From Patescibacteria group bacterium UBA1388 (GTDB lineage Bacteria > Patescibacteriota > Microgenomatia > UBA1400 > PJMF01), in contig DBQS01000016.1 of NCBI GenBank assembly GCA_002305355.1, forward strand, positions 36,279 through 100,278: 64,000 nucleotides of DNA, written 5' to 3'. The stretch's first letter is position 1; each line of letters begins with the position of its first letter. Both the position numbers and the translations under genes were made by a program. This document shows positions 1 to 17,831 of the stretch, piece after piece. Under the pieces are notes generated by a model. The model searched no databases. It saw only the letters and a list, made by a program, of their open reading frames with translations, and was not told the DNA's origin.

Positions 1-58
1 CGATCAGTATGCTCCCTTTTTGTTCATCAAATGTGGTTTTTTTACCAATTTTTTTCAT
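1..58 (-). CDS. Partial CDS (N-terminus only; the gene continues beyond the window start). Possible additional pseudopilin.
   Basis: ATG at 58-56 on the minus strand reads MKKIGKKTTFDEQKGSILI..., lying 3 nt downstream of the stop of the upstream pilin-like gene. Context suggests another prepilin-type protein, but the motif is incomplete. Confidence 0.3.
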   Translation of the reverse strand, partial: MKKIGKKTTFDEQKGSILI

Positions 59-61
59 TAT

Positions 62-571
62 TTATCTCATGCCGATTGTAGTTTGGAACTCTCTACTTTC
101 AAAACCTGTATTTTGGACAATCGGACTCGTGACGGTGTACGAAATTTTCAATGCATGTTTACCGCCAGGATTTCCGAGTCTTTGAATTGAAAAATTGCTA
201 ATTTGGGTATCGAAATTTAATGGCTGATGTTGATCCTCAACAATCAACACTAACTGGCCATCATCAACTACATAAGTATAATTAACGCCCTCAATGATTA
301 ACTTTGCGGTAGGGGAATTCTCTCCCAATAATAATGGCTGTACGATATTTGCAGATCTTTTGATGTCATAGGCTAAACGAGCAAGTATAAACTGACCGTC
401 ACGTTCAACTGCTGATAAAGCTTGACTTTGGCTTTTCGCTTCCAAGATTGATAGGAAAAGGGAGCTGAGTTGCACGAACATCAGTGACACCAACGCAAAA
501 TATAGCAAGAGCTCGATTAATGTATAACCTTGATTGAATCTCTTAATGATCTTTTGATTTGTTTTTATCAT
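62..571 (-). CDS. Type IV pilin-like / pseudopilin with a prepilin-type N-terminal cleavage-methylation domain.
   Basis: N-terminus ...RFNQG|YTLIELLLYFALVSLMF has Gly followed by (F/Y)TLIE and a hydrophobic helix, the class III signal. Confidence 0.7.
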   Translation of the reverse strand: MIKTNQKIIKRFNQGYTLIELLLYFALVSLMFVQLSSLFLSILEAKSQSQALSAVERDGQFILARLAYDIKRSANIVQPLLLGENSPTAKLIIEGVNYTYVVDDGQLVLIVEDQHQPLNFDTQISNFSIQRLGNPGGKHALKISYTVTSPIVQNTGFESREFQTTIGMR

Positions 572-624: not shown

Positions 625-2607
625 CTATGGAGAGTAATTGACAGTGACTGAATCAATCACTGGGGTACTGGAGCTATCCGCCGTTTCTAAAAAAACTTTA
701 TACTTAAAACATCTGCCAGGGTTTTCATAACCAGAATCATCATCATTGATAGGAATTGGCCCTTCATCTGTAAAAAATGTGGAGCTGGTTCCATCGGGAC
801 CAACAAAGATATATGATGGCTCAACGCAATTTCCGTTGACCGCATCTGCTACGGCCACTTGAAATTTTGCGCTGGTTTGATTGGGTACCATCTTATTCAT
901 CATCACATAATTAAAGGCGGTGGCATAACCAGCATCAAGATATTGAGATTCATAAGTGCCGGTAGTTGCAAATGAATCTCCGGCCCCACCTTCAATAATC
1001 TTGAACTCTGAAGTACTATCTTTGCTAACAATGTAAGAGTATGCTTCGCCATCTTGCTCTAACACACCATCAACCCCATAAACACCGGTATCTAAGTTGA
1101 GGCTGCCACACATTGTTGGATGTGATTCGTCAGTGATATCTACCACTTGATACTCTTCACCTCCAGTGCCAACAATAATTAGTTTGTTCTCGGTCACGAG
1201 TGCCAAGTCCCTGGGATTCATACCATGAGTGTCATATGTCCCAATGAGCGGAAGTGATCCGGATTTGCTAGTGGTGTCAATGATAAATAATTCCCTCATA
1301 TCCCCTGCCTCATCAGTGATGAGATATGCTCTGGTGCCAGTTTCATTTACTTCCACATCCTTACCACGTCTACTATTGACATTTGCGTATCCAACTCTTG
1401 ACAAACTTCTCGGATTAGAAACATCAATTATTTGCATTTCCCTCAAGCCAAAATCAAGCGCCACATAAGCATAATTTCCCTTCACATCAATTCTATAACC
1501 AGTTGCTGGCCACAACAAATAAGGACTCAAGTTGATTGAGTCAAGTTCGGGCAAATTGCCAGACTTATTAGTCAAGTCTACAGTGTGCAACTTGGGACCA
1601 ATCACCATATATGCCACGTTCCCAGACACATGCACTCCTTGCGCAGATCCCCACCAGTAAGTGTCATTAAAAACTGCTACCTCTTGCCCTGTTTCAAGAT
1701 CAACAACCAATAAATCTTTCGAAACGTCACCAGTCGCAATGTAAGCATAATTTTCATCAATGAAAATGTCATTGGTGTCATATCCTGCGATTTGATTGGC
1801 AATACTCACGCCAGGAGGATCATTTTGATCAATATCCATTTCTACAAATACTCCACCAGTACCATCGGTACCGCTAAAAGCCTTACCCTCAATCGCCCTC
1901 ACCACTTTAGCACGCCCTGTGCCAGGTAGGTCTAACTCGGTTCTAATGTAGTCGCTTGGTTTACACCAATTCCCTTTTCCACCAGAACCCAAAATGATTT
2001 CTCCGCCTTGATTATTTACCACCGCTGTGCCACTAGTGAATCCCTCTAAAAAATCTGCTTCACTCGTTTCGATTAAAGACAGATTGTCCAAATATCTAGT
2101 CATATAAATTACAGATGAGATCTGTGATGAGCTGGGTTGTTCCCAACTAATTTGAATGTCAATTTTTTTGATAGATGGATCAATAGTCCCACCTTCAGCA
2201 ATAATGTTTTCTGTTTCATCACGCATCACATCTGAAATAGTAAGTGCTCTTGTGAAGAGACCAGTTGTTTCTTCACCAGCCATAAGCGTCCAAGTCGATT
2301 CAGTCACTACCGGATGATAAACACCATTCGTGGCAATTGACTCCCAACTAGATTCTCTAATCACACGTAAAGCCTCCACGGTTTCAATGAGCAAACCATG
2401 CGCCTGAATTCTGTTCTGTCTTTGAGCGGAGCCTTGTTGAGAAGTAATAATTGCTCCAATTAAAGCAGGCGTAATAATTGCCATCAGGGCCATCACAACC
2501 AAAATTTCAATCAACAGTTGTCCCGAACTAGCGTTCCAGCTCTTCACAAATATTTGCCTCTGACCAGATAATTTTTGCAGAAACTTTAGATTAATTTTTT
2601 TGCGCAT
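625..2607 (-). CDS. Large (660 aa) prepilin-type protein fused to an LVIVD-repeat beta-propeller. Putative minor pilin or tip adhesin.
   Basis: N-terminus SSG|QLLIEILVVMALMAII is a prepilin motif. The body carries repeated blocks such as GNYAYVALDFGLREMQIIDVSNPRSLSRVGY, NKLIIVGTGGEEYQVVDITDESHP and LLVVDLETGQE, typical of LVIVD repeats. Confidence 0.7.
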   Translation of the reverse strand: MRKKINLKFLQKLSGQRQIFVKSWNASSGQLLIEILVVMALMAIITPALIGAIITSQQGSAQRQNRIQAHGLLIETVEALRVIRESSWESIATNGVYHPVVTESTWTLMAGEETTGLFTRALTISDVMRDETENIIAEGGTIDPSIKKIDIQISWEQPSSSQISSVIYMTRYLDNLSLIETSEADFLEGFTSGTAVVNNQGGEIILGSGGKGNWCKPSDYIRTELDLPGTGRAKVVRAIEGKAFSGTDGTGGVFVEMDIDQNDPPGVSIANQIAGYDTNDIFIDENYAYIATGDVSKDLLVVDLETGQEVAVFNDTYWWGSAQGVHVSGNVAYMVIGPKLHTVDLTNKSGNLPELDSINLSPYLLWPATGYRIDVKGNYAYVALDFGLREMQIIDVSNPRSLSRVGYANVNSRRGKDVEVNETGTRAYLITDEAGDMRELFIIDTTSKSGSLPLIGTYDTHGMNPRDLALVTENKLIIVGTGGEEYQVVDITDESHPTMCGSLNLDTGVYGVDGVLEQDGEAYSYIVSKDSTSEFKIIEGGAGDSFATTGTYESQYLDAGYATAFNYVMMNKMVPNQTSAKFQVAVADAVNGNCVEPSYIFVGPDGTSSTFFTDEGPIPINDDDSGYENPGRCFKYKVFLETADSSSTPVIDSVTVNYSP

Positions 2608-3118
2608 GCATCGCTCCTAATTGGTTAATTTCGAAATCAACTCGATCCCCAGTTGTTGAATTTTCCAAACTAAATGTATCTAAATCAGATTGATAGTTCA
2701 TGACTTCACCGCTTAACGGTAAAAATATAATTTGTCTATCAGGTATCGTCACTTCCCTAAATCTGACATCCTGAGGCAATGTCGCCACCACATTGGCGGA
2801 GTCGCTAGCTTGGAAAGTATCACCTTGAAACAAAACATATTGATCATCTCCTAAATAAACACCCTGAGGTAGTGCCTCATCGAGATTTGAATAATTGCCT
2901 TGCATGGCCTGCATTTGTTGTCTTTTCAAGTCGGAAACAAACATTTGTTGATACTCGCTGAGATTTGTTTTCGGGATTAATCCTGACAAAGAAATGCTAG
3001 AAATTGCAAACACTACTGTAAATAAGGCAAGCACAACTAATATTTCAACGAGCGTCATGCCTTTATCTTCATAAAGAATCGATCTGTGCAACCAATCCTT
3101 ACTTTTCCTGTTCATCAT
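2591..3118 (-). CDS. Type IV pilin-like protein (prepilin-type N-terminus).
   Basis: DKG|MTLVEILVVLALFTVVFAI motif. The ATGATG start at 3118/3115 gives MMNRKSKDW...; the longer ORF-track start at 3268 overlaps the kinase gene and is unlikely. Confidence 0.65.
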   Translation of the reverse strand: MMNRKSKDWLHRSILYEDKGMTLVEILVVLALFTVVFAISSISLSGLIPKTNLSEYQQMFVSDLKRQQMQAMQGNYSNLDEALPQGVYLGDDQYVLFQGDTFQASDSANVVATLPQDVRFREVTIPDRQIIFLPLSGEVMNYQSDLDTFSLENSTTGDRVDFEINQLGAMHAQKN

Positions 3119-5339
3119 TTGGGTCTTTCTTAACACTTTTTTCTTCGTGACGTTTGCGTAATTTTTTGAGTCCTTCCTCAGAATACACCGGCACTGTAAA
3201 ACTGAAAGTGGAACCTTTGCCATGACCGTCCGATTCAACCCAAATTTTCCCTCCGTGCAACTCAACAATTGATTTGCTGATGTACAAACCTAATCCAGTG
3301 CCTTGAGCTGAATCTTTGTTCGAAATGTAAGATTCTTTGAGCATACCAAATTTTTTAAACAACTTTGAAATTTGATCCCTCGCCAAACCTACTCCGGTAT
3401 CAATGACGCTGATCGTCACAAATTGTTTGGAAGCAGTTAGACATACTCTGACCTTACCTTGAGGGGGTGTGAATTTGAGTGCATTACCTATTAAATTAGT
3501 CAATACTTCAGCAATTTTATCTCGGTCTGCCATCACATCTGGTAAATCAGACATTTTCTGATGTTTAGCGGTCGGACACTCAATAGTGACCTGCACGTGA
3601 TGCGCTTCAGATCGAGGTTGAAATTCACCGACAATTTGTGACACTAATTCACCAATTTTTAGTTGGGTAATATTCAAAATAATTCTTCCTGATTCAATTC
3701 GCGAAATGTTCAACAAATCATTGATCAATTGTGACATTCTGTTGGCAGAGGCATATGCCCTATCTAAATAAAACTTTTGCTTGCGTTGCAACCTACCACC
3801 CTTGCCCGCCAAAGTCATCCAAATATAATTTTTGATTGAAACCATGGGAGTCCGCAACTCGTGAGAAGCAATTGATACAAATTCATCTTTAAGCTTGTCT
3901 AACTCCTGCAATTTTTTATTGGCAGCCAGTAATTGACTAGTAGCTCGTTCAATTTCATCCTCAAGTGTTATATTGAACCTGCGAATTTCTTCATAAGCTT
4001 TAGCATTTTCAATAGCAACTGCTGCTTGAGAGGCAATGATGTTAACTAACTTGGAGTCTCGGCTTGAAAAAGGATCGCCAGACAATTTCCCTCCCAAAGT
4101 AATTAGGCCTATTGTTTGACCCTCCTTAATCATCTCGATCACTAATTCAAACTCATATTTTTTAAAAATGTTCTGTAATTTGTTGTTGCTCAATGATTCG
4201 TAAATCATTAATTCATTGGGATGTAAAAGTTCTCCAATCTCTTTTTCATCAAGAACAGGTGTTTCGTCATACCCTTCACTAACAACCTGATATATCCCAT
4301 TTTCTTCAATTAAAATAATCATCCCTCTGTGAATTTTCATATTTTGTAACATACGTTGCAACAACTTCCGACATAAATCTTCCAGCAAGAGAGTGGATGC
4401 CATAATTAAAGTTAACTGGTGAAGCAATTCTTCGAAATCATAATAATCCTGATAAAAAATTTGATCCGTTGTTTTCGTAAGGAATTTTTTGAGTGGTTGC
4501 AGCGTAAATCCCACAGCAATAGACAAAAACACGAATATACTTGCTAAACGCAAATCTAACAAACTACCGAAAATCAAATTTGAAAACAAAAATAGAAAAA
4601 TACTTTGGAAAGTTGCAAAAATAATCAAGACTAAAAAATAGGAGACAGTTCTCGCTAGGACTGGCCTGATGTCTAAAAGTTGGTAACGACCAATGGCTGC
4701 GGCAACGGCCCCTCCTCCCAACAATAAAAATAATGGTGACCAATCAACAAACCAGGTAATATGAAAAATGAGCGGCAAAATTACCGTTGATACCAGCATT
4801 AAAATAAAGCTAATTGAAATACCGACTGCAATTAATTGCAGTTGTTGTCGCAAATAACCTTTGCTTAAACGGTATTTCCTGAACAGACTTGCTACTCCTC
4901 CCAAGATTGCACCTATCTGCAGCATCATAAATGACAACACTGCGGAACCAGCTTCGATTTGTAAAGTACCTGCTTCAATCGTAACTCTAGAAAAAATTAA
5001 TCCCGAATAAGCAAGAACAAAATTGAGCAAAACCCACAAAAAAAGAACGATTTGGATTTTCAAATTAAAAAATATTTTTTGTGTGGGAAATACTTTCACA
5101 AAACAAAAAAAGAAGGGACCAGCTGGAATGGCTGAAAATAGTATCATTTTAGAAAAGAAATCAAGGCCCATTTGAGAATTGGTATGTAAAGCTAAATAAT
5201 TAAAAATTGGGTAAAGACTAATGCAAAATAAAAGAAAAGCAAAATAGATATGAGTACCACTTTTCCTATTTTTGAGAATAATAAACAAGCCCAGTACAAA
5301 ACTGATTAAAGCAGTCAAGATGGCGATAAATAATTCCAT
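3099..5339 (-). CDS. Sensor histidine kinase: polytopic N-terminal membrane domain, GAF-like domain, HisKA, HATPase_c.
   Basis: At least 8 predicted TM helices at the N-terminus. H-box FVSIASHELRTPMVSIKNY. G-boxes GTGLGLYISKSIVELHGGKIWVESDGHGKGSTFSF. Confidence 0.8.
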   Translation of the reverse strand: MELFIAILTALISFVLGLFIILKNRKSGTHIYFAFLLFCISLYPIFNYLALHTNSQMGLDFFSKMILFSAIPAGPFFFCFVKVFPTQKIFFNLKIQIVLFLWVLLNFVLAYSGLIFSRVTIEAGTLQIEAGSAVLSFMMLQIGAILGGVASLFRKYRLSKGYLRQQLQLIAVGISISFILMLVSTVILPLIFHITWFVDWSPLFLLLGGGAVAAAIGRYQLLDIRPVLARTVSYFLVLIIFATFQSIFLFLFSNLIFGSLLDLRLASIFVFLSIAVGFTLQPLKKFLTKTTDQIFYQDYYDFEELLHQLTLIMASTLLLEDLCRKLLQRMLQNMKIHRGMIILIEENGIYQVVSEGYDETPVLDEKEIGELLHPNELMIYESLSNNKLQNIFKKYEFELVIEMIKEGQTIGLITLGGKLSGDPFSSRDSKLVNIIASQAAVAIENAKAYEEIRRFNITLEDEIERATSQLLAANKKLQELDKLKDEFVSIASHELRTPMVSIKNYIWMTLAGKGGRLQRKQKFYLDRAYASANRMSQLINDLLNISRIESGRIILNITQLKIGELVSQIVGEFQPRSEAHHVQVTIECPTAKHQKMSDLPDVMADRDKIAEVLTNLIGNALKFTPPQGKVRVCLTASKQFVTISVIDTGVGLARDQISKLFKKFGMLKESYISNKDSAQGTGLGLYISKSIVELHGGKIWVESDGHGKGSTFSFTVPVYSEEGLKKLRKRHEEKSVKKDPNDEQEK

Positions 5340-5345
5340 GCAGTG

Positions 5346-6482
5346 CTAGGGCAAATTAATCGCCTCCAAAACACTTCTGCGTGGCGTGTGAATTTCCCTA
5401 TTTACACTATACCCTAATCGAAAAAACATGTGAGGAGTAAGTTTGGGAATCCTGAAAAACGATTGCAAAAACGCTGGGTAGTTTTTGTTTTCAACCAAAG
5501 CTGCCATCGGCGTAGTGCTGATTCCAAAGTTTCGACAAACCAAAGCAACTAATTGATAAGCAATACCAGCTTGAATCCATGCCAAAATATTATTCTCAGA
5601 GCTAGCTATTAATCCTAACGCTGGTGCTGACTGTAAATTTTTAGCATCTTTGATCGACTGTATTTTCAATGGAAAAGCAAAAAACCTAATCACTATTGGT
5701 CCTAACCAAGACATCAAAAGTGGTAAACCTGAAACAAAACCGGGCATACCATCCGCTTGCTGAGTGTTGTTCGCTCGCAACCACTGGCTTAATTCTCTTC
5801 TGAAATTCTGATTCGCAGACATTTCATATGCTGCCTTCTTGTAAAGCTGAGCCAGTGTTTTAATTGTATCCCCATTTGATATAATTTTTAACTGAGATTT
5901 CGTAAATAATCTTACATAGTTGTTGATTAAATTTACAACTTGATTGGGAACAGTTTGAGAAAGATATTTCCCCTTATCTGAAAAACGTTTATCAATATTC
6001 TCAAACAGCCTACCGAGTATCATTAGTTTGGATATTTGATGATCATCTGTTGGTTTTTGAAATGAAACTTGAATTAATAATTCAAATCTTTTAACCCATA
6101 GGTCATTAACATTTGAAAAACAATTTTTAGTCTTAGTGATTCCTTGAAAATAGTTATCTTGATTAATATTTGATCTTTTCCGGTGAATTTCATAGTCAAT
6201 TTGATAACCATATGCTGCAGCAGCAACTTGTAAGTTTGTGATCATACAGCCGAGACTTATAAAAACACCCCTGTCAATGGGATCCGCGGCTGGCAGACGC
6301 AACTGATAATTTGGAGAAATTGTTAACCCGCCATCATTGACCTTTAACTTCCAAGGCTGCGTATTATGAGTTGATGGGGCAAGGATGCCCGCTTTCAAAC
6401 TTTCAGACACTACAACTGCTAATGATTTGTTGGATTGCGGTTGACGTAAATGATGCCAAGCTGCGTAATTGTGCTTATGCAT
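5346..6482 (-). CDS. Nitroreductase-superfamily (FMN oxidoreductase fold) protein with a long internal insertion.
   Basis: N-terminal ...AGILAPSTHNTQPWKLKV matches the nitroreductase APSxxNxQPW motif. C-terminal ...FFRLGYSVNREIHTPRRS matches the RLGY...PRR end of the fold. About 180 aa of non-canonical sequence lie between them. Confidence 0.6.
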   Translation of the reverse strand: MHKHNYAAWHHLRQPQSNKSLAVVVSESLKAGILAPSTHNTQPWKLKVNDGGLTISPNYQLRLPAADPIDRGVFISLGCMITNLQVAAAAYGYQIDYEIHRKRSNINQDNYFQGITKTKNCFSNVNDLWVKRFELLIQVSFQKPTDDHQISKLMILGRLFENIDKRFSDKGKYLSQTVPNQVVNLINNYVRLFTKSQLKIISNGDTIKTLAQLYKKAAYEMSANQNFRRELSQWLRANNTQQADGMPGFVSGLPLLMSWLGPIVIRFFAFPLKIQSIKDAKNLQSAPALGLIASSENNILAWIQAGIAYQLVALVCRNFGISTTPMAALVENKNYPAFLQSFFRIPKLTPHMFFRLGYSVNREIHTPRRSVLEAINLP

Positions 6483-7586
6483 TTAATTTACCTCCATCAT
6501 ATCTTCAAGATCAAATATACTTGGAAAATGAATTTTCGTTTGCTGACTAACAACCTTTTTGCGCAGGGCAATTTGTCTAACTAAAAAGGCAGTGATACCT
6601 GCGCCAACTGTCACCGAACTATACAGTTGTGGTCTACCAACCAAAGTTATTCCCAACTGGGTAACTGAGCGCTTTGCTCTAAGCGGCACATTATTTTTAC
6701 CAACTAAAGTTACCGCCAACATTTTCCGTTCATCATCGCTTAATTTTTGATTGACTATTTTATTTAATAAGGCTGCTTTCACCCTGCCATGAAAAGGTTG
6801 CAAACTTTCTAAGTCGTAACGTTCAACATCGAACAATACCGAATCACCCAAATTAGTGCACATCAAGAGAGGCAAACGGTACTTTTTCGCCATTTGTCTT
6901 AACAGGACTTTCATCGGAAAGTCATCTATTGCATCAATAAGCAATTGCGGCCGATTCTTTTCCCTCATTAATTTTTCTATTAATGTTTGAGTGGCTCTTT
7001 TCCGAATCACATTTAACTTTAAAAAAGGATCAAGCTGATATAAATCTTGAGCAACCCGCTCTGCTTTTGACTGACCAATAGCAAAGATATCGACCGGTAC
7101 ACGATTTAAATTTGATATCGAAAAATAATCATCATCACAAATTGTCATCCTCTGTGAAAAACCGCACTGGATGATAGTTTTCGCAATCACCCCGCCAATA
7201 GACATCCCAAAAATTGCAATCGGAAAGTCACGGAGTTGCAGCTGTTCTTTTGCTGAAATGAGTTTTTGATTACGGTTGGTGCGCAAAGCAAAAAAATTAT
7301 GCTCTGTAAGTAAGTGTACGATGGCATTTCTCCATGGATAATAGACCCACACGCCAATAATTTGATCTTGTTCTTTATTATCAGCTAAAAATTCTTGCAA
7401 CTTGGCTTGATTGCTTGCCACAGATGGATTAGTTATTTCAAATAATTCCCGTAGTTGGTCTTGGTAGTGATCAATTTTATTAACTTGAGGATGATGAGCT
7501 AACCATCTTGATAAGTCTTTAGGAGAGTGCGAATCAGCAGAAATTATGAAAGGTGAATATTCTGACTTCATTTGCTCATTCATCAA
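6483..7586 (-). CDS. ThiF/MoeB/E1-like adenylyltransferase-family protein with an N-terminal extension.
   Basis: IAIFGMSIGGVIAKTIIQCGF (GxGxxG Rossmann loop) followed by ICDDDYFSISNLNRV (D.D.V..SNLNRQ-type motif). There is zero-nt spacing to the downstream gene. Confidence 0.65.
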   Translation of the reverse strand: MMNEQMKSEYSPFIISADSHSPKDLSRWLAHHPQVNKIDHYQDQLRELFEITNPSVASNQAKLQEFLADNKEQDQIIGVWVYYPWRNAIVHLLTEHNFFALRTNRNQKLISAKEQLQLRDFPIAIFGMSIGGVIAKTIIQCGFSQRMTICDDDYFSISNLNRVPVDIFAIGQSKAERVAQDLYQLDPFLKLNVIRKRATQTLIEKLMREKNRPQLLIDAIDDFPMKVLLRQMAKKYRLPLLMCTNLGDSVLFDVERYDLESLQPFHGRVKAALLNKIVNQKLSDDERKMLAVTLVGKNNVPLRAKRSVTQLGITLVGRPQLYSSVTVGAGITAFLVRQIALRKKVVSQQTKIHFPSIFDLEDMMEVN

Positions 7587-7589
7587 ACC

Positions 7590-9116
7590 TTACTTCTTAA
7601 TCCATCGTTGCTTAATAATGGGGTTAAAATATTTGGGATGATGGTGTTCCCAAAAAATCACATTTGGTTCGGCCCTGCCATTAATAGTTTCATAGGTTTT
7701 TCTGTATGGTGAATTTTCAACTTTTAAAATCTCAACCAGTGTTTTCGTTACAGATTTTTTCAGTGATTTTGAACTTTTAATACCACTCTTTAACTCGACG
7801 TTAATATCTAATCTTTGATTCTGATCCCGATCATATCTGACTTCCATAGTAAATCTGCCAGTAACTGCTACCTCTAATTCGGAACGAAGTAATGCCCTTC
7901 TAATTGTTTCCGGATAAATCGTGAAACCATAAAAACTAACCGAAAAATCTCGCCTTTCGTAAACATAAACAAATGGTAGCTGCCAAACGGTATGATCTAT
8001 TTTTTCTTGTTTCGCAAGCTTCAGCAAATCTGTGCCATGTTCTTCAAAATTTTTAATCATCCTTTCAAAGGAAATTACTCTACCCCTATCTTTCAAATCA
8101 TAGCGTGCAAGTGGCAAACCACTATAGGCAGAACAAATTAAATCACCATCATCATCTTCAAAATAAAACATGTCTGGGAAAAATTGGGTTAAGGTAGGAA
8201 CACGATAGATTTTGTTAAAAACTTGATCAAAAATTACTTTGTTCAGATAAGCCTTTCTTCTTGCCAAAATTGAAAGTGGTGTTTCATAAGACATCGTACC
8301 CATATCCACCGTACCATATTGATTTAAAGTGTGCGTGAAAATATTTTCTAAGCCAGTTGCTTTCGCCACATAATCTCGAAAAGACTCACTAAATACTTCC
8401 GCCGCAAAAATAAAACCAAGGTCATATTGTTTCCACTTCAAACCCTCTCGTTTTGCTTCATCTAAAGTATCTTTGAGAAATGGTCCATAACTCCCAATAA
8501 TGATTTGATCAAAATATGGACCCAAGCGTTTGACAGCCTTAATGATTTCTGTCGCACTCACACCGGGTGTAATCACACTTAATGGATACTGTCTACTATC
8601 AGCAATGTATTTAATGGCTTGATAAGTAAACAAGCCTCCAATCCACTGCCCCATCGGAAAACCAACGATGTAGAGCGTAGTTTTCTGATCAATTTGAAAG
8701 TTTGTGAGCAAATATAATTCTGCCATTGCTGCATACTGCCAATCTTGATCCCTTTCCCTCGGAAAATAAAACGGTTCACCAGTTGATCCAGTAGTTGATG
8801 CAATTACAACTGGCTTTGAAGATAACTTACCATCCCACGATAAGGCATCAAGAGGATATTGTCTTAAATATGAGTTCTTACTAACTGGGGGTACCTTTTT
8901 AAAATCGGCAATTGTATTAATTGTGTGCGGCCTAATCTTGTGTTTACGTAAAAAATCTCGATAAGCAGGCACACGTAATGCCATCTGCTGAAATAATTGT
9001 AAAACGCGTTTGTCGCCTCTTTTTTGCCAATAATATTCTGGATTGTGTTGTAATTTGTAAAGTAATTTATTTGGTTGTAAATAGCCAGACGCTATTAATG
9101 TCCTGTTATTCTTCAT
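7590..9116 (-). CDS. PaaK-like (phenylacetate-CoA ligase / F390-synthetase family) adenylate-forming enzyme.
   Basis: ADFKKVPPVSKNSYLRQYP...VIASTTGSTGEPFYFPRERDQD aligns with PaaK DLRKFPCTTKQDLRDNYP...IHASSGTTGKPTVVGYTQNDID. The P-loop reads TTGSTGEP, with Glu where PaaK has Lys. The ATG at 9116 overlaps the upstream stop by 11 nt. Confidence 0.65.
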   Translation of the reverse strand: MKNNRTLIASGYLQPNKLLYKLQHNPEYYWQKRGDKRVLQLFQQMALRVPAYRDFLRKHKIRPHTINTIADFKKVPPVSKNSYLRQYPLDALSWDGKLSSKPVVIASTTGSTGEPFYFPRERDQDWQYAAMAELYLLTNFQIDQKTTLYIVGFPMGQWIGGLFTYQAIKYIADSRQYPLSVITPGVSATEIIKAVKRLGPYFDQIIIGSYGPFLKDTLDEAKREGLKWKQYDLGFIFAAEVFSESFRDYVAKATGLENIFTHTLNQYGTVDMGTMSYETPLSILARRKAYLNKVIFDQVFNKIYRVPTLTQFFPDMFYFEDDDGDLICSAYSGLPLARYDLKDRGRVISFERMIKNFEEHGTDLLKLAKQEKIDHTVWQLPFVYVYERRDFSVSFYGFTIYPETIRRALLRSELEVAVTGRFTMEVRYDRDQNQRLDINVELKSGIKSSKSLKKSVTKTLVEILKVENSPYRKTYETINGRAEPNVIFWEHHHPKYFNPIIKQRWIKK

Positions 9117-10161
9117 AAGATTCAATCTTTTGCAGATTAATTTCATCGGCAATAATGTGTGGCGAGCGCCTGGTTTTGGCACTAAGCTTAAAAATCTGGT
9201 CAAGCTCAGTGGCAATTGCATCCAGCTTTTTCATCATTCTGCGATGACTACGACGTGGGAACTCATACTCATCAACAACACTCATTAAACCACCGGCATT
9301 GATAATGTAGTCTGGGGTATAAAGAATATGACGCTCAAAAAGTAGATCTCCCATTTCTGAGGATGACAACTGATTGTTGGCGCCACCCGCTACTAATTGA
9401 CACTGCAGTTGCTTAACTGTTTTTTGATTAATACTACCGTACATAGCACATGGCACAAATACATCTACTGGCAAAGTAGCAATCGCTTCAGGTTTTACCA
9501 ATTCCACACGAGGATAAATTTTTTTAATGTTGGAAGTCACACTTTCTAAAACATCAGTCGCATAAATTTTTTCTGCCTCTGAGTAAAGTTGGCTGAGAAC
9601 TCCTGATCCAATTTTTCCCAAACCCTGAATGGCAAAACTCCTCTGATGCATTTCGTCATCACCAAAAACATGTTTCAAGCCCACTTTTAAGCCTTTAATA
9701 ATACCTGCCACAGTGTACTTCACAGGGTCAATTTCTCCGCCCACAACGTGTGAACTCAATTTCTTCAATTGCCGTACTTGCTGCCGACTCATGCCAATAT
9801 CTGCCCCGGTAATGAACATCCCAGCCAATAAATTAATCTGCTCCGCGTATGCTGCGGCCATGCGTGCTGTAAATTCTTCTGGGTGAGCAATAATCACAGC
9901 TTTTGCGCCACCATAAGATAAATTTCCAGCAGCTGATTTAAAAGACATTGTTTTCGATAAACGTAATACATCCCTCAGGGCTTCGACACGACTTGCATAG
10001 GGATAAATTCTAGTTGCCCCAAAAGACTTAAGTTTTTTTGAGCCACGATGAATGGCAATAAATCCTTCTAATTGTTGAGACGGTTGATTAAAGTAATGCA
10101 CGACTCGGTGTTGGTCATATTCCTCAAGATCGAGATTTGCTGTCAAACTGTTTTTTTTCAT
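9106..10161 (-). CDS. Glu/Leu/Phe/Val dehydrogenase family (leucine/phenylalanine dehydrogenase-like, NAD-dependent).
   Basis: IAIHRGS...GATRIYPYASRVEALRDVLRLSKTMSFKSAAGNLSYGGAKAVII, IQGLGKIG, DVFVPCAMYG, LVAGGANNQL and YTPDYIINAGG align motif-for-motif with Bacillus LeuDH. Both catalytic Lys positions are present. Confidence 0.85.
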   Translation of the reverse strand: MKKNSLTANLDLEEYDQHRVVHYFNQPSQQLEGFIAIHRGSKKLKSFGATRIYPYASRVEALRDVLRLSKTMSFKSAAGNLSYGGAKAVIIAHPEEFTARMAAAYAEQINLLAGMFITGADIGMSRQQVRQLKKLSSHVVGGEIDPVKYTVAGIIKGLKVGLKHVFGDDEMHQRSFAIQGLGKIGSGVLSQLYSEAEKIYATDVLESVTSNIKKIYPRVELVKPEAIATLPVDVFVPCAMYGSINQKTVKQLQCQLVAGGANNQLSSSEMGDLLFERHILYTPDYIINAGGLMSVVDEYEFPRRSHRRMMKKLDAIATELDQIFKLSAKTRRSPHIIADEINLQKIESYEE

Positions 10162-10771: not shown

Positions 10772-11827
10772 TTATCTCGCGCCTACTGAGCCAATCAAAC
10801 CATAAATTGGAGCGATGATCGCCATCATCATCCCTCCCACCGCCAGTCCCACAAAAACAAGCAAGAGCGGTTCTAGCATAGCTGTCATTTTCTTTACAGA
10901 CTTACTCACCTTATAATCCATATTCTCAGATACATTTTGCATTGCTTCCTCAAGCGTGCCACTCTTCTCACCAACTTCCATTAACTTAATCATAATGCCA
11001 GGAATAATGTTCTGCTTGCTTTGTAAACCATGAGAAAAAGGATGACCAGCAACAGCTTGCTCTCGAGCTTGATCCACCAAATCTCTGACTTCTTTTTTTA
11101 AAATTACCTCCTGAGCAAGTTCTAATGAGGTGGTGATAGGGATACCAGAAGAAAGAAGTAAATGTAAACTCCGACTAAATCTGGTGATATCGATTTCACG
11201 AATTAGCTTAGAAACTCCAGGAAATGAAAATGCTATTTGTAAGATAAACTCACGTTTGGTTTGATACAAAACAAAAATAATCATCACTAACAACGCTACA
11301 ATTCCGAGTACAATTTGCCAATTGCCAGTCAAAGCGTTGGAAGTAAAGATTAATGCTTTCGTCGCCATTGGAAGAGTGACATTCAACCTTGTAAATACAG
11401 TTGAAATACGAGGAATAACAAACAATAACATACCCAACAACACGCCAATAAAAACAATCATCACGACAATCGGATAAAACATGGCTGACTTCACACCGTC
11501 AATGAATTCCATTTCTTTTTTAATATTCCCCTGCAAATCGTACAATGTTTCTTCAAGTGTACCTGCTTCTTCAGCGGCTTTAATCAAACTCACTGTGACT
11601 TTGTCGAAAGTATAAGGATATCTAGAAAAAGAGTCGGAAATTTGTTTGCCTGCAGAAATATCTTCACGCAAGGACAGTAAAATCTTTCTTTGGTTTCCTT
11701 TTGCTTCTGCGAGCAACGAGTCGACTGTTTCTGAAATAGGGATACCAGCCGACAACATCGTTTTTAAATTAGCGATTAAGCTAATTTTTTCCTCTTGCGC
11801 TAATCTAACTCTGCCGAATCCAAACAT
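10772..11827 (-). CDS. pilC: Type IV pilus assembly platform protein PilC / GspF family.
   Basis: Polytopic protein with two GspF-type repeats (GTLEETLYDLQ ... MFYPIVVMIVFIGVLLGMLLFVIPR). Lies 3 nt downstream of pilB. Confidence 0.85.
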   Translation of the reverse strand: MFGFGRVRLAQEEKISLIANLKTMLSAGIPISETVDSLLAEAKGNQRKILLSLREDISAGKQISDSFSRYPYTFDKVTVSLIKAAEEAGTLEETLYDLQGNIKKEMEFIDGVKSAMFYPIVVMIVFIGVLLGMLLFVIPRISTVFTRLNVTLPMATKALIFTSNALTGNWQIVLGIVALLVMIIFVLYQTKREFILQIAFSFPGVSKLIREIDITRFSRSLHLLLSSGIPITTSLELAQEVILKKEVRDLVDQAREQAVAGHPFSHGLQSKQNIIPGIMIKLMEVGEKSGTLEEAMQNVSENMDYKVSKSVKKMTAMLEPLLLVFVGLAVGGMMMAIIAPIYGLIGSVGAR

Positions 11828-11830
11828 GCC

Positions 11831-13525
11831 CTACTCCATTTCAGTCTTGGTCACTCTTAATACTTCTTCAATCGTGGTCATGCCCTTAGTAATTTTTTCA
11901 ATTCCATCATCAAACATGCTAGTTAATCCCTCTTTGAGGGCTTGTTCACTTATCGCATCTGCATCTGCTTTTTTGGCAATTAATTCTCGCAAATCCTTGG
12001 AAACTTCCAGAACTTCATAAATTCCAATTCTGCCCTTATAACCAGTGTTATGACACACTCGGCACCCTTGACCTCGATAAACTCTAACTTCTTTTTTATC
12101 ACCTACGGGAATGTAGTGTTTATTAATCGTTTCGAGAGAAAGATATTTTTGCAACTCTGTCACTGGTATTGTTTCTGAAACTCGACAATGTGGGCAGATC
12201 CTTCTCACCAGTCTTTGAGCTACAATCACATGCACCGTACCAGCTACTAAAAATGGCTCAACCTTCATATCAAATAACCGAGGCAACGAGGAAACTGCAT
12301 TGTTCGTGTGCAAGGTTGAGAAAACAAGATGTCCAGTCAAAGCCGCATTGATCGCAATGGCAGCGGTCTCATTGTCCCTAATTTCTCCCACAAATATGTA
12401 ATCAGGATCCTGTCTTAATAGGGACCTCAGACCATTGGCAAAAGTTAAATTTGTTTTTTCATTGACTTGCACCTGATTAGCACCTTTAATCCTATACTCA
12501 ACTGGATCTTCAATACTGGTGAGATTAGTTTCCCGCGTGTTGATCGTTTTTAGAATTGAGTAAATAGTAGTCGTTTTTCCAGATCCAGTTGGGCCGGTCA
12601 CCAAAATCATGCCGTCAGTTCTGGCAGCTGCCTTTTTAATTTTTACCAAATCTGTTTCATTAATACCTAGCTCTTCCAAAGAATAAGACCTAGCTTGAGA
12701 TGTCAACAGTCTCATCACAACTTTTTCGCCTTCTGCAATGGGAATTATTGAAACACGCAAGTCCAGTCGCTCTCCGTTAATATCCATTTTAATTTTACCG
12801 TCTTGTGCCGCTAAGTGCTGATCAGTTCTTAAGCTTGATAAAACTTTAATTCTAGTCACAATTCTACCGAGCAAGTCTTTAGGCAGACTGGCAATGTCAT
12901 GTAAAATCCCGTCAATCCTAAATCTGACCAACACCTCATCTTCATTGGGTTCAATATGAATATCTGATGCATGCTCTAAATAAGCAGCTTTAATCACTTC
13001 ATCGACCAATTTTTTAACGGGTGGATCGTGAGCAACTGTGCGCATCACTCTTCCATCTGCTTCATTCAGTAACTTACTAAATATTTCCTGAAAATCGGTG
13101 TGATAATTTAATAAGGTTTGATTTAAATCTTGTTCAGTAGCAAAAAAGATTTTGACTTGTTTGCCTGTTTTTTGGGCTACTAGTTTGGGTAAAATTTGAT
13201 TCTTAAAATCGGCTGTGGCAATACTGACATACTTTTCATCTTCTGCAAAAGTCACCATTTTATGACGTTTTGCTACCTCCTCAGGCATAATGTTCATCGT
13301 TTCATCAGAAATATTTTGTTTACTCAATTCAACAAATGGCACTTTAATTACTTCGGCAACTAACTTTCCCATAGCCTGATCGGTGGTATATCCTTTTTCA
13401 ACCAAACCATCCCAAAGACTCACATCTGTCTCTTCTGCAAATTTAGCGATTTTTTTGAGATCTGTGCGGCTGATAATTTTTTTAGCCAACAACAAATTGC
13501 TGAGTTGGGCATCAGTGAGTTGCAT
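11831..13525 (-). CDS. pilB: Type IV pilus assembly ATPase PilB / GspE family.
   Basis: GspE N-terminal domain, Walker A GMILVTGPTGSGKTTT, Walker B/Asp box and the C-terminal CxxC...CxxC zinc tetrad (CPHCR...CRVCHNTG). Confidence 0.9.
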   Translation of the reverse strand: MQLTDAQLSNLLLAKKIISRTDLKKIAKFAEETDVSLWDGLVEKGYTTDQAMGKLVAEVIKVPFVELSKQNISDETMNIMPEEVAKRHKMVTFAEDEKYVSIATADFKNQILPKLVAQKTGKQVKIFFATEQDLNQTLLNYHTDFQEIFSKLLNEADGRVMRTVAHDPPVKKLVDEVIKAAYLEHASDIHIEPNEDEVLVRFRIDGILHDIASLPKDLLGRIVTRIKVLSSLRTDQHLAAQDGKIKMDINGERLDLRVSIIPIAEGEKVVMRLLTSQARSYSLEELGINETDLVKIKKAAARTDGMILVTGPTGSGKTTTIYSILKTINTRETNLTSIEDPVEYRIKGANQVQVNEKTNLTFANGLRSLLRQDPDYIFVGEIRDNETAAIAINAALTGHLVFSTLHTNNAVSSLPRLFDMKVEPFLVAGTVHVIVAQRLVRRICPHCRVSETIPVTELQKYLSLETINKHYIPVGDKKEVRVYRGQGCRVCHNTGYKGRIGIYEVLEVSKDLRELIAKKADADAISEQALKEGLTSMFDDGIEKITKGMTTIEEVLRVTKTEME

Positions 13526-13566: not shown

Positions 13567-14643
13567 GTTAGTCGCACATACTTTTCGGAAAATTGGTTGT
13601 AATAAATTGCACTGGTGATTGATAATTTAGTGCCATATGTGGTCGCTTGGTGTTGTACCAAGCTAAGTACTTAGTTAGTTTAACTTGGAAAGTGTTTAAG
13701 TCATAGTAGATCTCATCATTTCTGTTAATAAACTCTTCTTGGATGGTTCTGTTAAATCTTTCAACAACACCATTAATTTTGGGTGATCTAGGATAAATAA
13801 ATTGATGTTTAATTTTTTGCTTCTCCAGATACTGGTGAAATGTTTTAAAAAATTCTGACCCGTTGTCTGTTTGGACTGTATAAACTTGATGAGGCAAAAT
13901 ATTTTGGAATTCCTGAAAAGTAATTTTAGCTTGCAAGCTAGAGAGAGTGCTAACTTTCCTGACATGAGCTAGCTTTGTAAAGATATCGATACAACACATG
14001 AAGTTGTGTCGAGTGTTGTCGATATACACCACCACAGAGTCCATTTCGATATATCCTGGTTTAGTAACCTTAGGAGATCTTCTTGATCTATCTTTAGATA
14101 ATTTATTCTTTCTCTTAACTCTTCTTGGTGGATCAAAGAATAAGTTTCTTCTCCTAATCACTTTAGAAATAGTTCGACTGCTAATTGAGGGTATATTAAG
14201 CTCACCAGCATATTCATCTAAAAAGATCTTGAGTTTTCTTTCTCCAATGTTGCCATGCTGCTCTCTAAACTCACGAATAAACTGAACTAATCTCCAATCA
14301 GTCGTCATCTGTCTAACTCTCTTGGGACGAGTCTTCTTAGGTACCAGTGATAACAGAGCTTTTCCAGATTCTTCATACTTTCTTTTCCAGTCATACAAGG
14401 TAGATTTGCCAATCTTGAATGCTTGAATAGCTGATTTGTAGCCATATTTGTAGTAGTGATCTAGCACGTGGAGTCTAAACTTGGCAGGATCTGATTTATC
14501 AAAGTTAAGTGAGTTTTCAAGTGTCTTCATCAACCAATCATACTGATTGTTATATGAAAACAACTCAATATTTCGTCTAATCCCAACTCCTTGTTTAACT
14601 TTCACGACTATCTTTCCATTCCGGAAAGTATCGTGCGACATTC
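13567..14643 (-). mobile_element. IS481-family-like insertion sequence (1077 bp) with imperfect terminal inverted repeats and a 7-bp target-site duplication, AACTTTT.
   Basis: IRL is GTTAGTCGCACATACTTTTCGGAA (13567-). IRR, as the reverse complement of 14620-14643, is GAATGTCGCACGATACTTTCCGGAA. AACTTTT occurs at 13560-13566 and again at 14644-14650. A single transposase ORF fills the element. Confidence 0.75.
13568..14641 (-). CDS. DDE transposase (rve integrase core) with an N-terminal HTH, IS481-like.
   Basis: YIEMDSVVVYID...VQTDNGSEFF...INGVVERFNRT forms the D, D, E triad of the rve domain. The start codon lies inside the IR. Confidence 0.85.
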   Translation of the reverse strand: MSHDTFRNGKIVVKVKQGVGIRRNIELFSYNNQYDWLMKTLENSLNFDKSDPAKFRLHVLDHYYKYGYKSAIQAFKIGKSTLYDWKRKYEESGKALLSLVPKKTRPKRVRQMTTDWRLVQFIREFREQHGNIGERKLKIFLDEYAGELNIPSISSRTISKVIRRRNLFFDPPRRVKRKNKLSKDRSRRSPKVTKPGYIEMDSVVVYIDNTRHNFMCCIDIFTKLAHVRKVSTLSSLQAKITFQEFQNILPHQVYTVQTDNGSEFFKTFHQYLEKQKIKHQFIYPRSPKINGVVERFNRTIQEEFINRNDEIYYDLNTFQVKLTKYLAWYNTKRPHMALNYQSPVQFITTNFPKSMCD

Positions 14644-15923
14644 AACTTTTTATCACCCAAAAATCCAGTTACTTCTGGTCTAATTATTTCTTTTTGAATT
14701 AACAAACCAGACGTCACGGTAAACAATCCATAACGATCATTCAAAGTATCAACTGCCTGAGAGATTTGTTCTTGTTGCCACCAACCCGGAAACCAGCAGT
14801 CTTGAATTTCAGACCATGGTTTGAGCAAAGACACGCCAACGTGCAATCTAATCACTGGAAATTGATTTCGCCAATTGGGGTATAACTGATACTTAATTAA
14901 ATCAAACATTTCGCTGACGTGTCGAACATAATATTTCAGGGTAAGATGATCTGCCCAAAACTGATGATTGCCAGCCAATGAACAAAAAACCAAACGACCC
15001 GCCAACTTCATTTTACGTAATTTATAAATTACTTCCTCTGAAAGATTATAAAGTGTGGACATAATCAAATCTTGGCTGCTGCTCAACCTGTATCCAGTGA
15101 TTGAGCGACTGACACTTTTCATGTAGGGTAAGTCATTTGCCAAGCGTTTTAAAAACAGCGGTTCTTCACCACGACCCATTTTACGCAGTTCATCACTCCA
15201 AAAAGGACCAAACATCGATCTTAAAACTTCAGTGGGAATAAAATTAATTTGATAAGGTACAGTTACTCCAATTCTGCCAAGACGCTTCGCTAAACGTGGA
15301 CCAATTCCGCAAACGTCTTTAAACTGAGTTTGAGCTAATATAAGCGCTTTGTTTGCTGCTGTAACTTGCCGCACGCTACCCTTTGGCGCAGTTTCACCAA
15401 CCATTTTAGCTAAAAATCGATTCTCCGCGATCCCAATATTGCAGGTCACCCACTCTCCTAAAATTGATTTAACTTTATCTTGAATTTTCAAGGCAAAATT
15501 ATATGGTGAATCGTATAATTTTTGAATCTGAGCATAATCAATAAAAACTTCATCTAAAGAAAATACTTCTGTGCTGGGACTAAGCTGATCAAACAACTCC
15601 TTCAAGCGCTTGGTAGCCGAGAAATACATTTCAAAAGCGGCTGGCATCTCAACTAAGTCAGGAGCAAGCTGGTATGCCTCTGCTAAAGAACAACCGGTAC
15701 CAATACCTTTTAATTTTGCCTCTTTGGAAGCAGCAATCACACAACTTCTACCCAATTCTTTTACAACCACCACCGGCTTATTGCGCAAAGCGGGTGTTTC
15801 CTGTTGGAGAAGGGTGGCAAAGTAAGAATTAATATCAATGTGCAGTACAACTTGTTGTTTCAGATGGTTAAGTTCATTCACACCATACCTCCGCCAATTC
15901 CCACACCTCTTCACTCCGGTCAA
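14595..15923 (-). CDS. Y-family DNA polymerase (DinB/UmuC-like translesion polymerase). The 3' end was rewritten by the IS insertion.
   Basis: VVLHIDINSYFA and SLDEVFIDY match the DinB HVDMDCFFA and SLDEAYLD motifs. The last 16 codons (LNVARYFPEWKDSRES) are encoded by the IS terminus; the pre-insertion reading would end ...GDKKFHFS*. Confidence 0.8.
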   Translation of the reverse strand: MTGVKRCGNWRRYGVNELNHLKQQVVLHIDINSYFATLLQQETPALRNKPVVVVKELGRSCVIAASKEAKLKGIGTGCSLAEAYQLAPDLVEMPAAFEMYFSATKRLKELFDQLSPSTEVFSLDEVFIDYAQIQKLYDSPYNFALKIQDKVKSILGEWVTCNIGIAENRFLAKMVGETAPKGSVRQVTAANKALILAQTQFKDVCGIGPRLAKRLGRIGVTVPYQINFIPTEVLRSMFGPFWSDELRKMGRGEEPLFLKRLANDLPYMKSVSRSITGYRLSSSQDLIMSTLYNLSEEVIYKLRKMKLAGRLVFCSLAGNHQFWADHLTLKYYVRHVSEMFDLIKYQLYPNWRNQFPVIRLHVGVSLLKPWSEIQDCWFPGWWQQEQISQAVDTLNDRYGLFTVTSGLLIQKEIIRPEVTGFLGDKKLNVARYFPEWKDSRES

Positions 15924-16422: not shown

Positions 16423-17175
16423 ATGCTTACTTTCCCACTTGATGGTTCGCACGTTAATTTGAGCATTGCTTTTGTGGCTGGTTTCGTTACTTTTTTCGCA
16501 TCTTGTTTGCTGCCTCTAATACCCACCTATTTAGCTTATTTATCTGGAATTGCAATTAATGACCAATTAGACCAGTCAACTAAACCTAAGCGCTGGCTAA
16601 TAATCAAAGCCGCGGTGTTGTTTGTGTTAGGTTTTGTCACCATTTTCACAATCTTGGGTCTGGCTTTAATCGGCATTCAAACATGTACTAATGGCTATCG
16701 GGCAATAATGCAACGCTTGGCTGGTCTGTTATTCATAATTTTGGGTTTATTTATGTTAGGTATTTTTCGATTACCTTGGTTCAATCAAGATCATCGGTTA
16801 TCAATTCACCAAACTATTACTAAACATAAAAACTTGCATGCGCTAGCAATGGGAGTGGCATTTGGGTTTGGTTGGACACCCTGCATTGGACCAGTATTAG
16901 CAGTAATTTTATTTTGGGCCAGTCAGAGTACTTCACAATGGCAAGGCATCCTTCTTTTGGTTACCTATGGTTTAGGCTTGGGTTTGCCCTTTATTTTGAT
17001 CGCGGCAGCATTTGAAAAAGTATTCCCATTTATTAAAAAATCACGTCAACTGAGCTATTACTTGAACATTGTCGCCGCCATCATCATTGTCCTCGTGGGG
17101 GGATTATTACTCACAAATCAATTTCATGCTTTTTCTGGTTATCTACTAAAAGCCCTCAAATTATCTAGTCTTTAA
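16423..17175 (+). CDS. ccdA: CcdA/DsbD-family thiol-disulfide transporter (cytochrome c biogenesis-type).
   Basis: Six TM helices with Cys in TM1 (FFASCLLPLIPTY) and the conserved GWTPCIGPVLA motif. Confidence 0.7.
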   Translation: MLTFPLDGSHVNLSIAFVAGFVTFFASCLLPLIPTYLAYLSGIAINDQLDQSTKPKRWLIIKAAVLFVLGFVTIFTILGLALIGIQTCTNGYRAIMQRLAGLLFIILGLFMLGIFRLPWFNQDHRLSIHQTITKHKNLHALAMGVAFGFGWTPCIGPVLAVILFWASQSTSQWQGILLLVTYGLGLGLPFILIAAAFEKVFPFIKKSRQLSYYLNIVAAIIIVLVGGLLLTNQFHAFSGYLLKALKLSSL

Positions 17176-17343: not shown

Positions 17344-17766
17344 ATGTCAATCATTCGGTGGAATCCTGCGATTAGCGCGCTCGGTCGTTGGCCCAACATC
17401 TGGGATGAAGAAGATTTTCCAACCTTCAACAGAGCGAATAATCTTGATGTATACGAAACTCAAGACGAAGTTGTAGTGAAAGCAAACGTAGCGGGAGTTC
17501 CAGCAGAGAAAGTAGATGTCACTTATGACAAAGGCGTGCTATGGATTCAAGCCAATGCTGAAGAATCATCTGAAGAAGACAAAAAGCATTACAGTCGTTC
17601 TTCATGGAGCTATTCTTACAAAGTAGCCGTACCAGGTGAAATTGATGAGAATCTTGACCCAGCTGCGGAAGTTGAGGATGGAGTGATTAAAGTCACATTT
17701 AAAAAATCGCCAGCTTCAAAACCCAAAAAGTTGCAGGTCTCACAAAAAGGAAAAAGCAAGTCTTGA
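17344..17766 (+). CDS. Small heat-shock protein (Hsp20/alpha-crystallin family).
   Basis: Alpha-crystallin domain LDVYETQDEVVVKANVAGVPAEKVDVTYDKGVLWIQA...GVIKVTFKK. Confidence 0.85.
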   Translation: MSIIRWNPAISALGRWPNIWDEEDFPTFNRANNLDVYETQDEVVVKANVAGVPAEKVDVTYDKGVLWIQANAEESSEEDKKHYSRSSWSYSYKVAVPGEIDENLDPAAEVEDGVIKVTFKKSPASKPKKLQVSQKGKSKS

Positions 17767-17785
17767 TATCAAGACTTGCTTTTTT
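17756..17785 (+). terminator. Rho-independent terminator for the Hsp20 gene.
   Basis: Perfect 11-bp stem GCAAGTCTTGA / TCAAGACTTGC with a 2-nt loop, followed by TTTTTT (17780-17785). The stem overlaps the stop codon. Confidence 0.7.
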
Positions 17786-17831
17786 AAAACCGTTACGCAA
17801 CATGATCAGCTGCTGTAAGTTTGGTTGTGTT

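Follow-up and report, generated by a model that had tools for sequence, protein, structure and literature searches.

What does a bacterium gain from a pilin that carries a beta-propeller? The question is raised by one gene in a 64,000-nucleotide stretch of Patescibacteria group bacterium UBA1388 (contig DBQS01000016.1; the whole stretch is called the window here). The gene occupies window 625-2607 (minus strand) as one open reading frame (ORF) of 660 residues, in which a prepilin signal is followed by a pilin module, beta-strand segments and a propeller of the LVIVD type. We call its product the propeller pilin. An earlier reading of the DNA, made from the letters only and called the sequence-only reading below, had proposed a prepilin-type N-terminus fused to an LVIVD propeller, had suggested a priming or tip complex and had compared the protein with the tip adhesin PilY1. 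Our analysis indicates that the gene probably encodes a modular type IV minor pilin, whose I-type module sits in the tip complex of the pilus and whose propeller module binds a ligand.

Domain composition and predicted structure

The N-terminus of the propeller pilin reads MRKKINLKFLQKLSGQRQIFVKSWNASSG↓QLLIEILVVMALMAIITPALIGAII, where the arrow marks the predicted cleavage site: a charged leader runs to Gly29, followed by a hydrophobic stretch with Glu34 at position +5. The signal region, G29↓QLLIE34ILVVMALMAIITPALIGAII, thus has the three features of a class III signal, namely Gly at -1, about 20 hydrophobic residues and Glu at +5. The leader peptide comprises residues 1-29 (window 2521-2607; all features of this gene lie on the minus strand), with Gly29 as the predicted prepilin peptidase site. 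Its length and sequence vary across the family while Gly-1 is kept. In an alignment of 39 sequences of the propeller-pilin family (alignment A1), Gly-1 is found in 38 and Glu+5 in all 39, and both residues are present in 76 of 76 orthologues from species-level genomes. The family motif across species is G↓Q(S/T/L)(L/I)(I/V)E, with Glu at +5 in all 76. An AGGAG sequence lies 6 nucleotides 5' of the start codon, and the gene begins within the last codons of the pilin gene upstream, with an overlap of 17 nucleotides. The strings quoted in the sequence-only reading, SSG↓QLLIEILVV (residues 27-38), IIDVSNPRSLSRVGY and YQVVDITDESHP, are all present in the ORF.

The AlphaFold2 model computed on alignment A1 has a mean predicted local distance difference test score (pLDDT) of 87 and a predicted template modelling score of 0.70. 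Residues 1-27 are disordered in the model (pLDDT below 50), and a single helix of 58 residues spans residues 29-86. We assign the pilin alpha-1 helix to residues 30-86 (window 2350-2520), beginning QLLIE with Glu34 at +5, on the basis of the helix given by DSSP, the invariance of Glu5 and the profile alignment. The globular beta-sheet of the pilin covers residues 87-175 (window 2083-2349), with six predicted strands between residues 95 and 170, and together with the helix it would form the classic pilin layout of an I-type (ComGE/GspI-like) module. When the pilin module is modelled alone, the pLDDT is 88, the helix covers residues 27-86 and a block over residues 31-170 reaches pLDDT values of 93-98. 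A plain signal peptide, which the sequence-only reading had named as the outcome that would speak against it, is not what the model gives; it gives a long pilin helix. For the pilin module by itself, Foldseek gave no match above noise in the PDB (best E = 0.045). Searches of PDB sequences with profiles of the family and of the N-terminal module aligned to pilins over the first 30-40 residues only and found no relative with a solved structure; the part of the solved pilins that the family profile covers is their N-terminus with G↓FTLIELL.

The second part of the protein is identified by the Pfam family LVIVD (PF08309), which matches in 4 stretches with 64.4 bits against a gathering cut-off of 20.2 (E = 6e-18) and which also matches 36 of the 39 aligned relatives. 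The model shows 28 strands between residues 221 and 540, which can be read as seven four-stranded blades, each with the LVIVD pattern, so that we place a predicted seven-bladed beta-propeller at residues 217-541 (window 985-1959). Foldseek against the PDB finds many seven- and eight-bladed propellers with E values of about 1e-10 and template modelling scores of 0.6-0.7 (normalised by target). Sequence identity to these is 9-15%, and therefore the propeller is a generic one with no close solved relative. Together with the Gly-1/Glu5 signal, these matches bear out the proposed fusion of a prepilin-type N-terminus to an LVIVD propeller. The extent of the repeats was overestimated at about 600 residues; the propeller spans about 325, and the remainder is taken up by the pilin globular domain and by strand segments on either side of the propeller.

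The N-terminal strand segment (residues 176-216, window 1960-2082) contains short strands at 176-210 and conserved residues F186, G202, L206, W214 and C215, ending in the conserved W214-C215. The C-terminal strand segment (residues 542-660, window 628-984) has strands over 544-659, the motifs GYENPGRCF and NYSP and a Cys594/Cys633 pair. It contains 19 positions that are at least 90% conserved, and no Pfam family was found for it. From the topology of the model and from one variant, described below, we infer that the two segments form one split beta-sandwich within which the propeller is inserted.

Four cysteines are conserved in the alignment: Cys215, Cys500, Cys594 and Cys633. Their conservation suggests two disulfides, one between Cys215 and Cys500 that would close the propeller and one between Cys594 and Cys633 within the C-terminal segment. 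A 1027-residue variant (P0121) contains two tandem propellers, each with its own WC...CGG cysteine pair, which supports both this pairing and the shared sandwich. The window also contains a gene for a DsbD-type membrane protein (16423-17175, plus strand), and one for a DsbA/thioredoxin-like protein (17733-18521, plus strand) lies just downstream of the pilus operon in L001, a contig 99% identical to our locus that reaches beyond the window edge. These genes fit extracellular disulfides formed from the four cysteines. Other variants of the family include a protein of 897 residues with an extra ConA-like lectin (Laminin_G_3) domain (P0127), one of 953 residues with more canonical LVIVD repeats (P0223) and one of 1998 residues with 11 matched stretches (P0261).

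Taxonomic distribution and conservation

A homologue search over 5.8 billion proteins found more than 160 homologues. The 120 that were listed are 41-99% identical to the propeller pilin, nearly all are 612-672 residues long and they are annotated as "hypothetical protein" or "prepilin-type ... domain-containing protein". They come from Pacebacteria, Woesebacteria, Levybacteria, Shapirobacteria and "Patescibacteria group" metagenome-assembled genomes (MAGs). A profile search of 1.84 billion representatives at 50% identity gave 1,426 proteins (clusters) at E <= 1e-30, and the best 150 of these all have E values below 1e-123, are mostly full-length and measure 600-710 residues. With so many homologues, the propeller pilin is not a chance ORF.

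The informatively titled records of related loci all belong to Microgenomates-type Patescibacteria (candidate phyla radiation), a large group of bacteria that are ultrasmall and uncultivated. Many third-party annotation MAG records with this Patescibacteria-type operon (L005, L007-L011, L014 and others) are titled "uncultured Pseudomonadales bacterium" or "uncultured Gammaproteobacteria bacterium"; these titles look like mislabels.

Across the related loci the propeller pilin has a median identity of 43%. The corresponding values are 29-37% for the other three minor pilins of the operon, 50-59% for PilB, PilC and the major pilin, and 23% for a 408-residue membrane protein described below. The grafted module is acidic, with a median net charge of -24.5 (range -59 to -5) in 78 orthologues, and every region of it is neutral or negative.

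Position in the pilus operon

The propeller pilin gene lies in a set of pilus genes that read, in minus-strand order, pilB, pilC, a divergent response regulator, a five-gene insert, an H-type pilin, the propeller pilin, a J-type pilin and the start of a K-type pilin. The extension ATPase PilB (T2SSE and MshEN domains; 11831-13525, minus strand) and the platform protein PilC (T2SSF; 10772-11827, minus strand) are clearly recognised by Pfam (T2SSE E = 3.9e-128, T2SSF E = 5e-45). The H-type minor pilin directly upstream (2591-3118, minus strand; 175 residues, G↓MTLVE) matches N_methyl and TIGR02532 above their cut-offs and GspH with E = 6.5e-5; its start codon was set from L001. The J-type (ComGF/GspJ-like) minor pilin downstream (62-571, minus strand; 169 residues, G↓YTLIE) is assigned from weak ComGF matches of its orthologues. 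Only the first 19 codons of the K-type minor pilin (1-58, minus strand; G↓SILIA, without Glu5) lie in the window, which cuts the gene; in L001 the full gene is at 12549-12950 and encodes 133 residues. The short pseudopilins that the sequence-only reading had seen on both sides are therefore real, with a third beginning at position 58. The start and stop codons of the pilus genes overlap or nearly adjoin, which is consistent with an operon. In L001 the K-type gene is followed by the gene for the 408-residue single-pass membrane protein and then by a 157-residue major pilin (G↓FTLIELLVV, with a GspG-like match).

To describe this arrangement across species we used a scan with one genome per species, which found 138 loci; 80 were fetched, and these plus one earlier locus (81 in total) were searched with the operon proteins by tblastn. 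The usual order is pilB-pilC-H-[propeller pilin]-J-K-(408-residue homologue)-major pilin, and in most loci no gene separates pilC from the H-type gene. The propeller pilin holds its place between the H- and J-type genes in nearly all 81 loci, among which the J-type pilin was detected in 77, the K-type in 75, PilC in 71, the H-type in 70, the major pilin in 69 and PilB in 63. The propeller pilin is thus associated with type IV machinery both in the window, through PilB and PilC, and by synteny in most of the loci.

The four minor pilins differ in a consistent way. Glu at +5 is present in the first three and missing in the fourth, and the propeller pilin is the second of the four. The H-type, J-type and major pilins share the motif G↓FT(L)(I/V)E, with Glu at +5 in 100% (H 70/70, J 77/77). 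The K-type motif is G↓Q(A/T)L(V/I) followed by T, A, I or V, with Glu at +5 in 0 of 75. The gene order H-[propeller pilin]-J-K is that of ComGD-GE-GF-GG and of PulH-I-J-K (PMC10191384, Table 1). Core minor pilin sets of this kind form a complex located at the tip, with the subunit that lacks Glu5 as cap, and initiate filament assembly (Pelicic 2023 review, PMC10191384). A last pilin without Glu5 in a conserved flanking set is a signature of such a tip or priming complex, and the earlier suggestion of one therefore holds up.

Domain models point in the same direction. Residues 29-78 of the propeller pilin match the NCBIfam models ComGE (E = 5e-6) and GspI, both below cut-off. When the N-terminal modules of 26 family members were searched, ComGE matched 22, GspI 5, XpsI 4 and PilV 2, and ComGE was the top pilin-class match in 22 of the 26. 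The best models for the first gene of the set, the H-type, are GspH and ComGD. Orthologues of the J-type pilin match ComGF in 13 of 26 cases and Verru_Chthon cassette protein C in 14 of 26, all below cut-off. The 133-residue K-type protein has no PDB sequence match and no Pfam family; it is assigned from its lack of Glu5, its place in the gene order and the weak matches of a few orthologues to PilX_N and ComGG (3 of 22 each). Most likely, then, the propeller pilin is the I-type minor pilin of a tip or priming complex and carries a ligand-binding module.

Proposed mechanism

We suggest the following mechanism. A prepilin peptidase would cut the propeller pilin after Gly29, and the mature protein would begin QLLIE, with Glu5 docking it beneath the subunit above. 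The N-terminal 146 residues of the mature protein would act as an I-type (GspI/PilI/ComGE-class) pilin module, which together with the H-, J- and K-type pilins may build the complex from which the pilus grows. Since the pilus would grow from this complex, the complex would end up at the pilus tip, where the K-type subunit, having no Glu5, would cap it. The acidic module of about 485 residues, consisting of the propeller and its flanking strand segments, would then be borne at or beside the tip. There it may bind a ligand, the likeliest being a conserved surface component of the cells to which the episymbionts attach. The job that a separate PilY1/PilC protein does elsewhere would here be built into a core pilin.

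An adhesin role for the propeller module is suggested by analogy. The grafted modules of the Streptococcus sanguinis minor pilins PilB and PilC are adhesive (PMC8179133), and TM7x requires its propeller-bearing pilin PilX2 to bind its host (PMC12206443). Together with the variants that add a lectin domain or duplicate the propeller, these cases support a ligand-binding role.

Several observations weigh against this interpretation. The ComGE scores of 26-30 bits are well short of the cut-off of 49, and none of the curated ComGE, GspI or PilV models reaches its cut-off. The residue at +1 is Gln rather than Phe or Met, and the processing and methylation of the propeller pilin are therefore assumed. 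Neither Pfam N_methyl (PF07963) nor TIGR02532 matches the protein, even at E <= 1; of the two Pfam families named in the sequence-only reading, LVIVD was recovered and N_methyl was not. A probable cause of the low score is the unusual Gln at +1, and N_methyl does match 14 of the 39 aligned relatives (E <= 0.01). A six-frame search for the G-x-G-D-x-K motif found no prepilin peptidase in the 64-kb window, so the cognate enzyme must lie elsewhere in the genome. Finally, the propeller pilin is more conserved in sequence than the other minor pilins, which points away from a fast-evolving receptor specific to the host and towards a structural role or a ligand that is itself conserved.

Gln at +1 is found in 25 of the 39 aligned relatives and is usual in both the propeller pilin (57 of 76 orthologues) and the K-type pilin (58 of 75), with Phe in the H-type, J-type and major pilins; the K-type pilin of this window has Ser. 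The N-terminal Gln of these pilins could undergo methylation or cyclise to pyroglutamate.

The relative conservation raises the question whether the propeller might instead be a structural cap or an assembly factor, which has no external ligand and serves to stabilise or gate the priming complex, for instance through contacts with the J and K subunits or the envelope. We regard this as unlikely, although the presence of the gene in every family locus examined would also fit it. Such a function would resemble the role proposed for the propeller of PilC/PilY1, a carrier contacting the minor pilins with other modules as effectors (PMC8179133). In the propeller pilin, however, the pilin module already provides an anchor and a second carrier seems redundant. 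The duplication of the propeller and the addition of a lectin domain in variants are a pattern typical of effector modules. Moreover, when the propeller pilin of TM7x was deleted, host binding fell and the number and length of the filaments changed, yet filaments were still formed (PMC12206443).

It is improbable, in our view, that the operon encodes a Com-like pilus for DNA uptake, in which the propeller module helps to take hold of DNA or nucleotides outside the cell. ComGD, ComGE, ComGF and ComGG do provide both the gene order and the best model matches, weak as these are, and these bacteria probably need external nucleotides. Their genomes are described as reduced and lacking many normally essential pathways (PMC11665869), which would also favour uptake. 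On the other hand, the strongly negative charge of the grafted module argues against direct DNA binding, and we down-weighted a DNA receptor on this ground. In addition, the major pilin is at the end of the operon and not in the comGC position, and Pfam detected no known DNA-binding domain in the propeller pilin.

Surface display without incorporation into a filament, where the class III signal would only export and anchor a cell-surface propeller, as in archaeal sugar-binding proteins with class III signals, would suit the large module (about 55 kDa), the Gln at +1 and the missing N_methyl match, but we consider it the least probable reading because a full predicted pilin module of helix and sheet is present and not a signal alone, because Glu5, important for docking into the filament, is invariant and because the gene keeps its fixed place between the H- and J-type genes.

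Comparison with known systems

A pilin module at residues 30-175 combined with an LVIVD propeller, a domain not specific to pili, makes the propeller pilin a modular pilin as defined by Raynaud et al. 2021. Dataset S1 of that study (PMC8179133) lists the architecture of IPR012902 followed by 1 to 13 copies of IPR013211, the LVIVD repeat, in rows that sum to about 30 proteins. They include one Falkowbacteria protein with 12-13 LVIVD repeats, and the motif is called "of unknown function" there. In our literature search no paper came up in which the LVIVD pilin family or its operon position is described.

The modular pilins PilB and PilC of S. sanguinis are similar in that a small class III pilin module carries a bulky module not specific to pili, a vWA module in PilB and a ConA-like lectin module in PilC (PMC8179133; PMC9934059), and like the propeller pilin they are minor pilins thought to be located at the tip. 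Here, however, the graft is an LVIVD propeller with flanking strand segments, and its carrier is the I-type subunit of a four-pilin set, whereas the I-like PilA of S. sanguinis is not modular.

PilX2 of TM7x (Nanosynbacter lyticus, Saccharibacteria; Grossman et al. 2025, PMC12206443) is likewise a minor pilin from Patescibacteria with a C-terminal seven-bladed propeller. Its deletion halves host binding, and it has been proposed to be a pilus adhesin analogous to PilY1 (PMC12206443). The likeness is drawn from the published description of PilX2, and there are differences. The PilX2 propeller consists of RCC1 repeats and not of LVIVD repeats. PilX2 has no predicted prepilin-peptidase signal, whereas the LVIVD pilin family conserves Gly-1 and Glu5. 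And PilX2 belongs to an accessory, non-essential second pilus, while the LVIVD pilin gene is found in the pilB-pilC operon in most related loci.

The conserved domain of PilY1 is itself a seven-bladed beta-propeller (PMC8179133, PMC12206443), and like the propeller pilin it is encoded with minor pilins and displayed on a minor-pilin tip complex. The comparison with PilY1 made in the sequence-only reading can thus be kept as a possible adhesin analogy, but its statement that the fold differs cannot, as only the family differs. PilY1 is not a pilin; its propeller (IPR008707) docks non-covalently on minor pilins, whereas here the anchor would be a covalently fused pilin module. The PilY1/PilC propeller domain had no Pfam match to the propeller pilin at E <= 1, and with its own pilin module present we rejected membership of the PilY1/PilC family.

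In gene arrangement the operon resembles the GspH-I-J-K, PilH-I-J-K and ComGD-GE-GF-GG sets, which also consist of four consecutive minor pilin genes beside ATPase and platform genes. In the GspHIJK/ComG sets and in ours three subunits keep Glu5 and the last one lacks it, and the weak best matches run D/H, E/I, F/J and G/K. Known I subunits have about 100-130 residues, however, and the propeller pilin with 660 is five times larger. An extra domain is also known from GspK, but on the K subunit and not the I subunit. Lastly, CofB and TcpB of type IVb pili are large tip minor pilins with extra beta-rich domains after the pilin module that engage a partner. These extra domains are a beta-repeat and a beta-sandwich rather than a propeller, and CofB and TcpB form homotrimers that replace the HIJK set, while the propeller pilin is one member of such a set.

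Neighbouring genes

The 408-residue protein (L001 12947-14173, plus strand), encoded between the K-type and the major pilin, has one central membrane helix and a homologue detectable in 44 of the 81 loci at about 23% identity. It had no Pfam, NCBIfam or PDB match, and our guess is a PilM-PilN/GspL-like assembly-platform protein.

Five genes (3099-10161, minus strand) separate pilC and the response regulator from the minor pilins in the window. They encode a Glu/Leu/Phe/Val-dehydrogenase-like protein (9106-10161), a 543-residue protein without a family (7590-9221), a ThiF/E1-like protein (6483-7586), a nitroreductase-like protein (5346-6482) and a 7TM-GAF histidine kinase (3099-5339), all on the minus strand. 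In 10 of the 81 loci the histidine kinase gene immediately precedes that of the H-type pilin. The five genes may represent a small cassette for modification or biosynthesis, and regulation of the pilus is a possible function of the kinase. Directly upstream of pilB are an rve-family transposase/integrase (13568-14641, minus strand) and a Y-family ImpB/MucB DNA polymerase (14595-15923, minus strand). Two further ORFs of the window, at 54303-57533 (minus strand, 1076 residues) and 29743-31383 (minus strand, 546 residues), had no Pfam match at E <= 0.1.

Significance

The architecture of the propeller pilin is already catalogued in the 2021 survey, and a propeller-bearing pilin has been genetically tested in Saccharibacteria. 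What our analysis adds is the assignment to the I position in a conserved four-pilin set, a putative layout with the propeller inside a sandwich, and the near-universal presence of the family in the main pilus operon of Microgenomates-type lineages. It clearly exemplifies a grafted module that is carried by a core member of the priming complex and not by an accessory pilin. This supports the view that pili gain functions by domain grafting and changes no current concept.

A further, rather doubtful possibility is that, within the universal four-pilin priming complex, the I subunit itself became the tip effector in Microgenomates-type Patescibacteria. Every pilus of the main operon would then be capped by the same acidic propeller, which might recognise one shared ligand, for example a common cell-envelope glycan, and not lineage-specific receptors. 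The idea of a single shared ligand comes from the better conservation of the propeller module compared with the other minor pilins. If it is true, host attachment in many uncultivated lineages would become accessible through a single molecular handle that can be tested.

The lifestyle assumed for Patescibacteria is attachment to other microbes, with type IV pili as the best candidate for host contact (PMC12206443). Among them only Saccharibacteria have been studied experimentally. The LVIVD pilin family, found in at least 138 species-level genomes, is a conserved and easily recognised candidate for the part of the pilus that makes contact in the Microgenomates-type branch.

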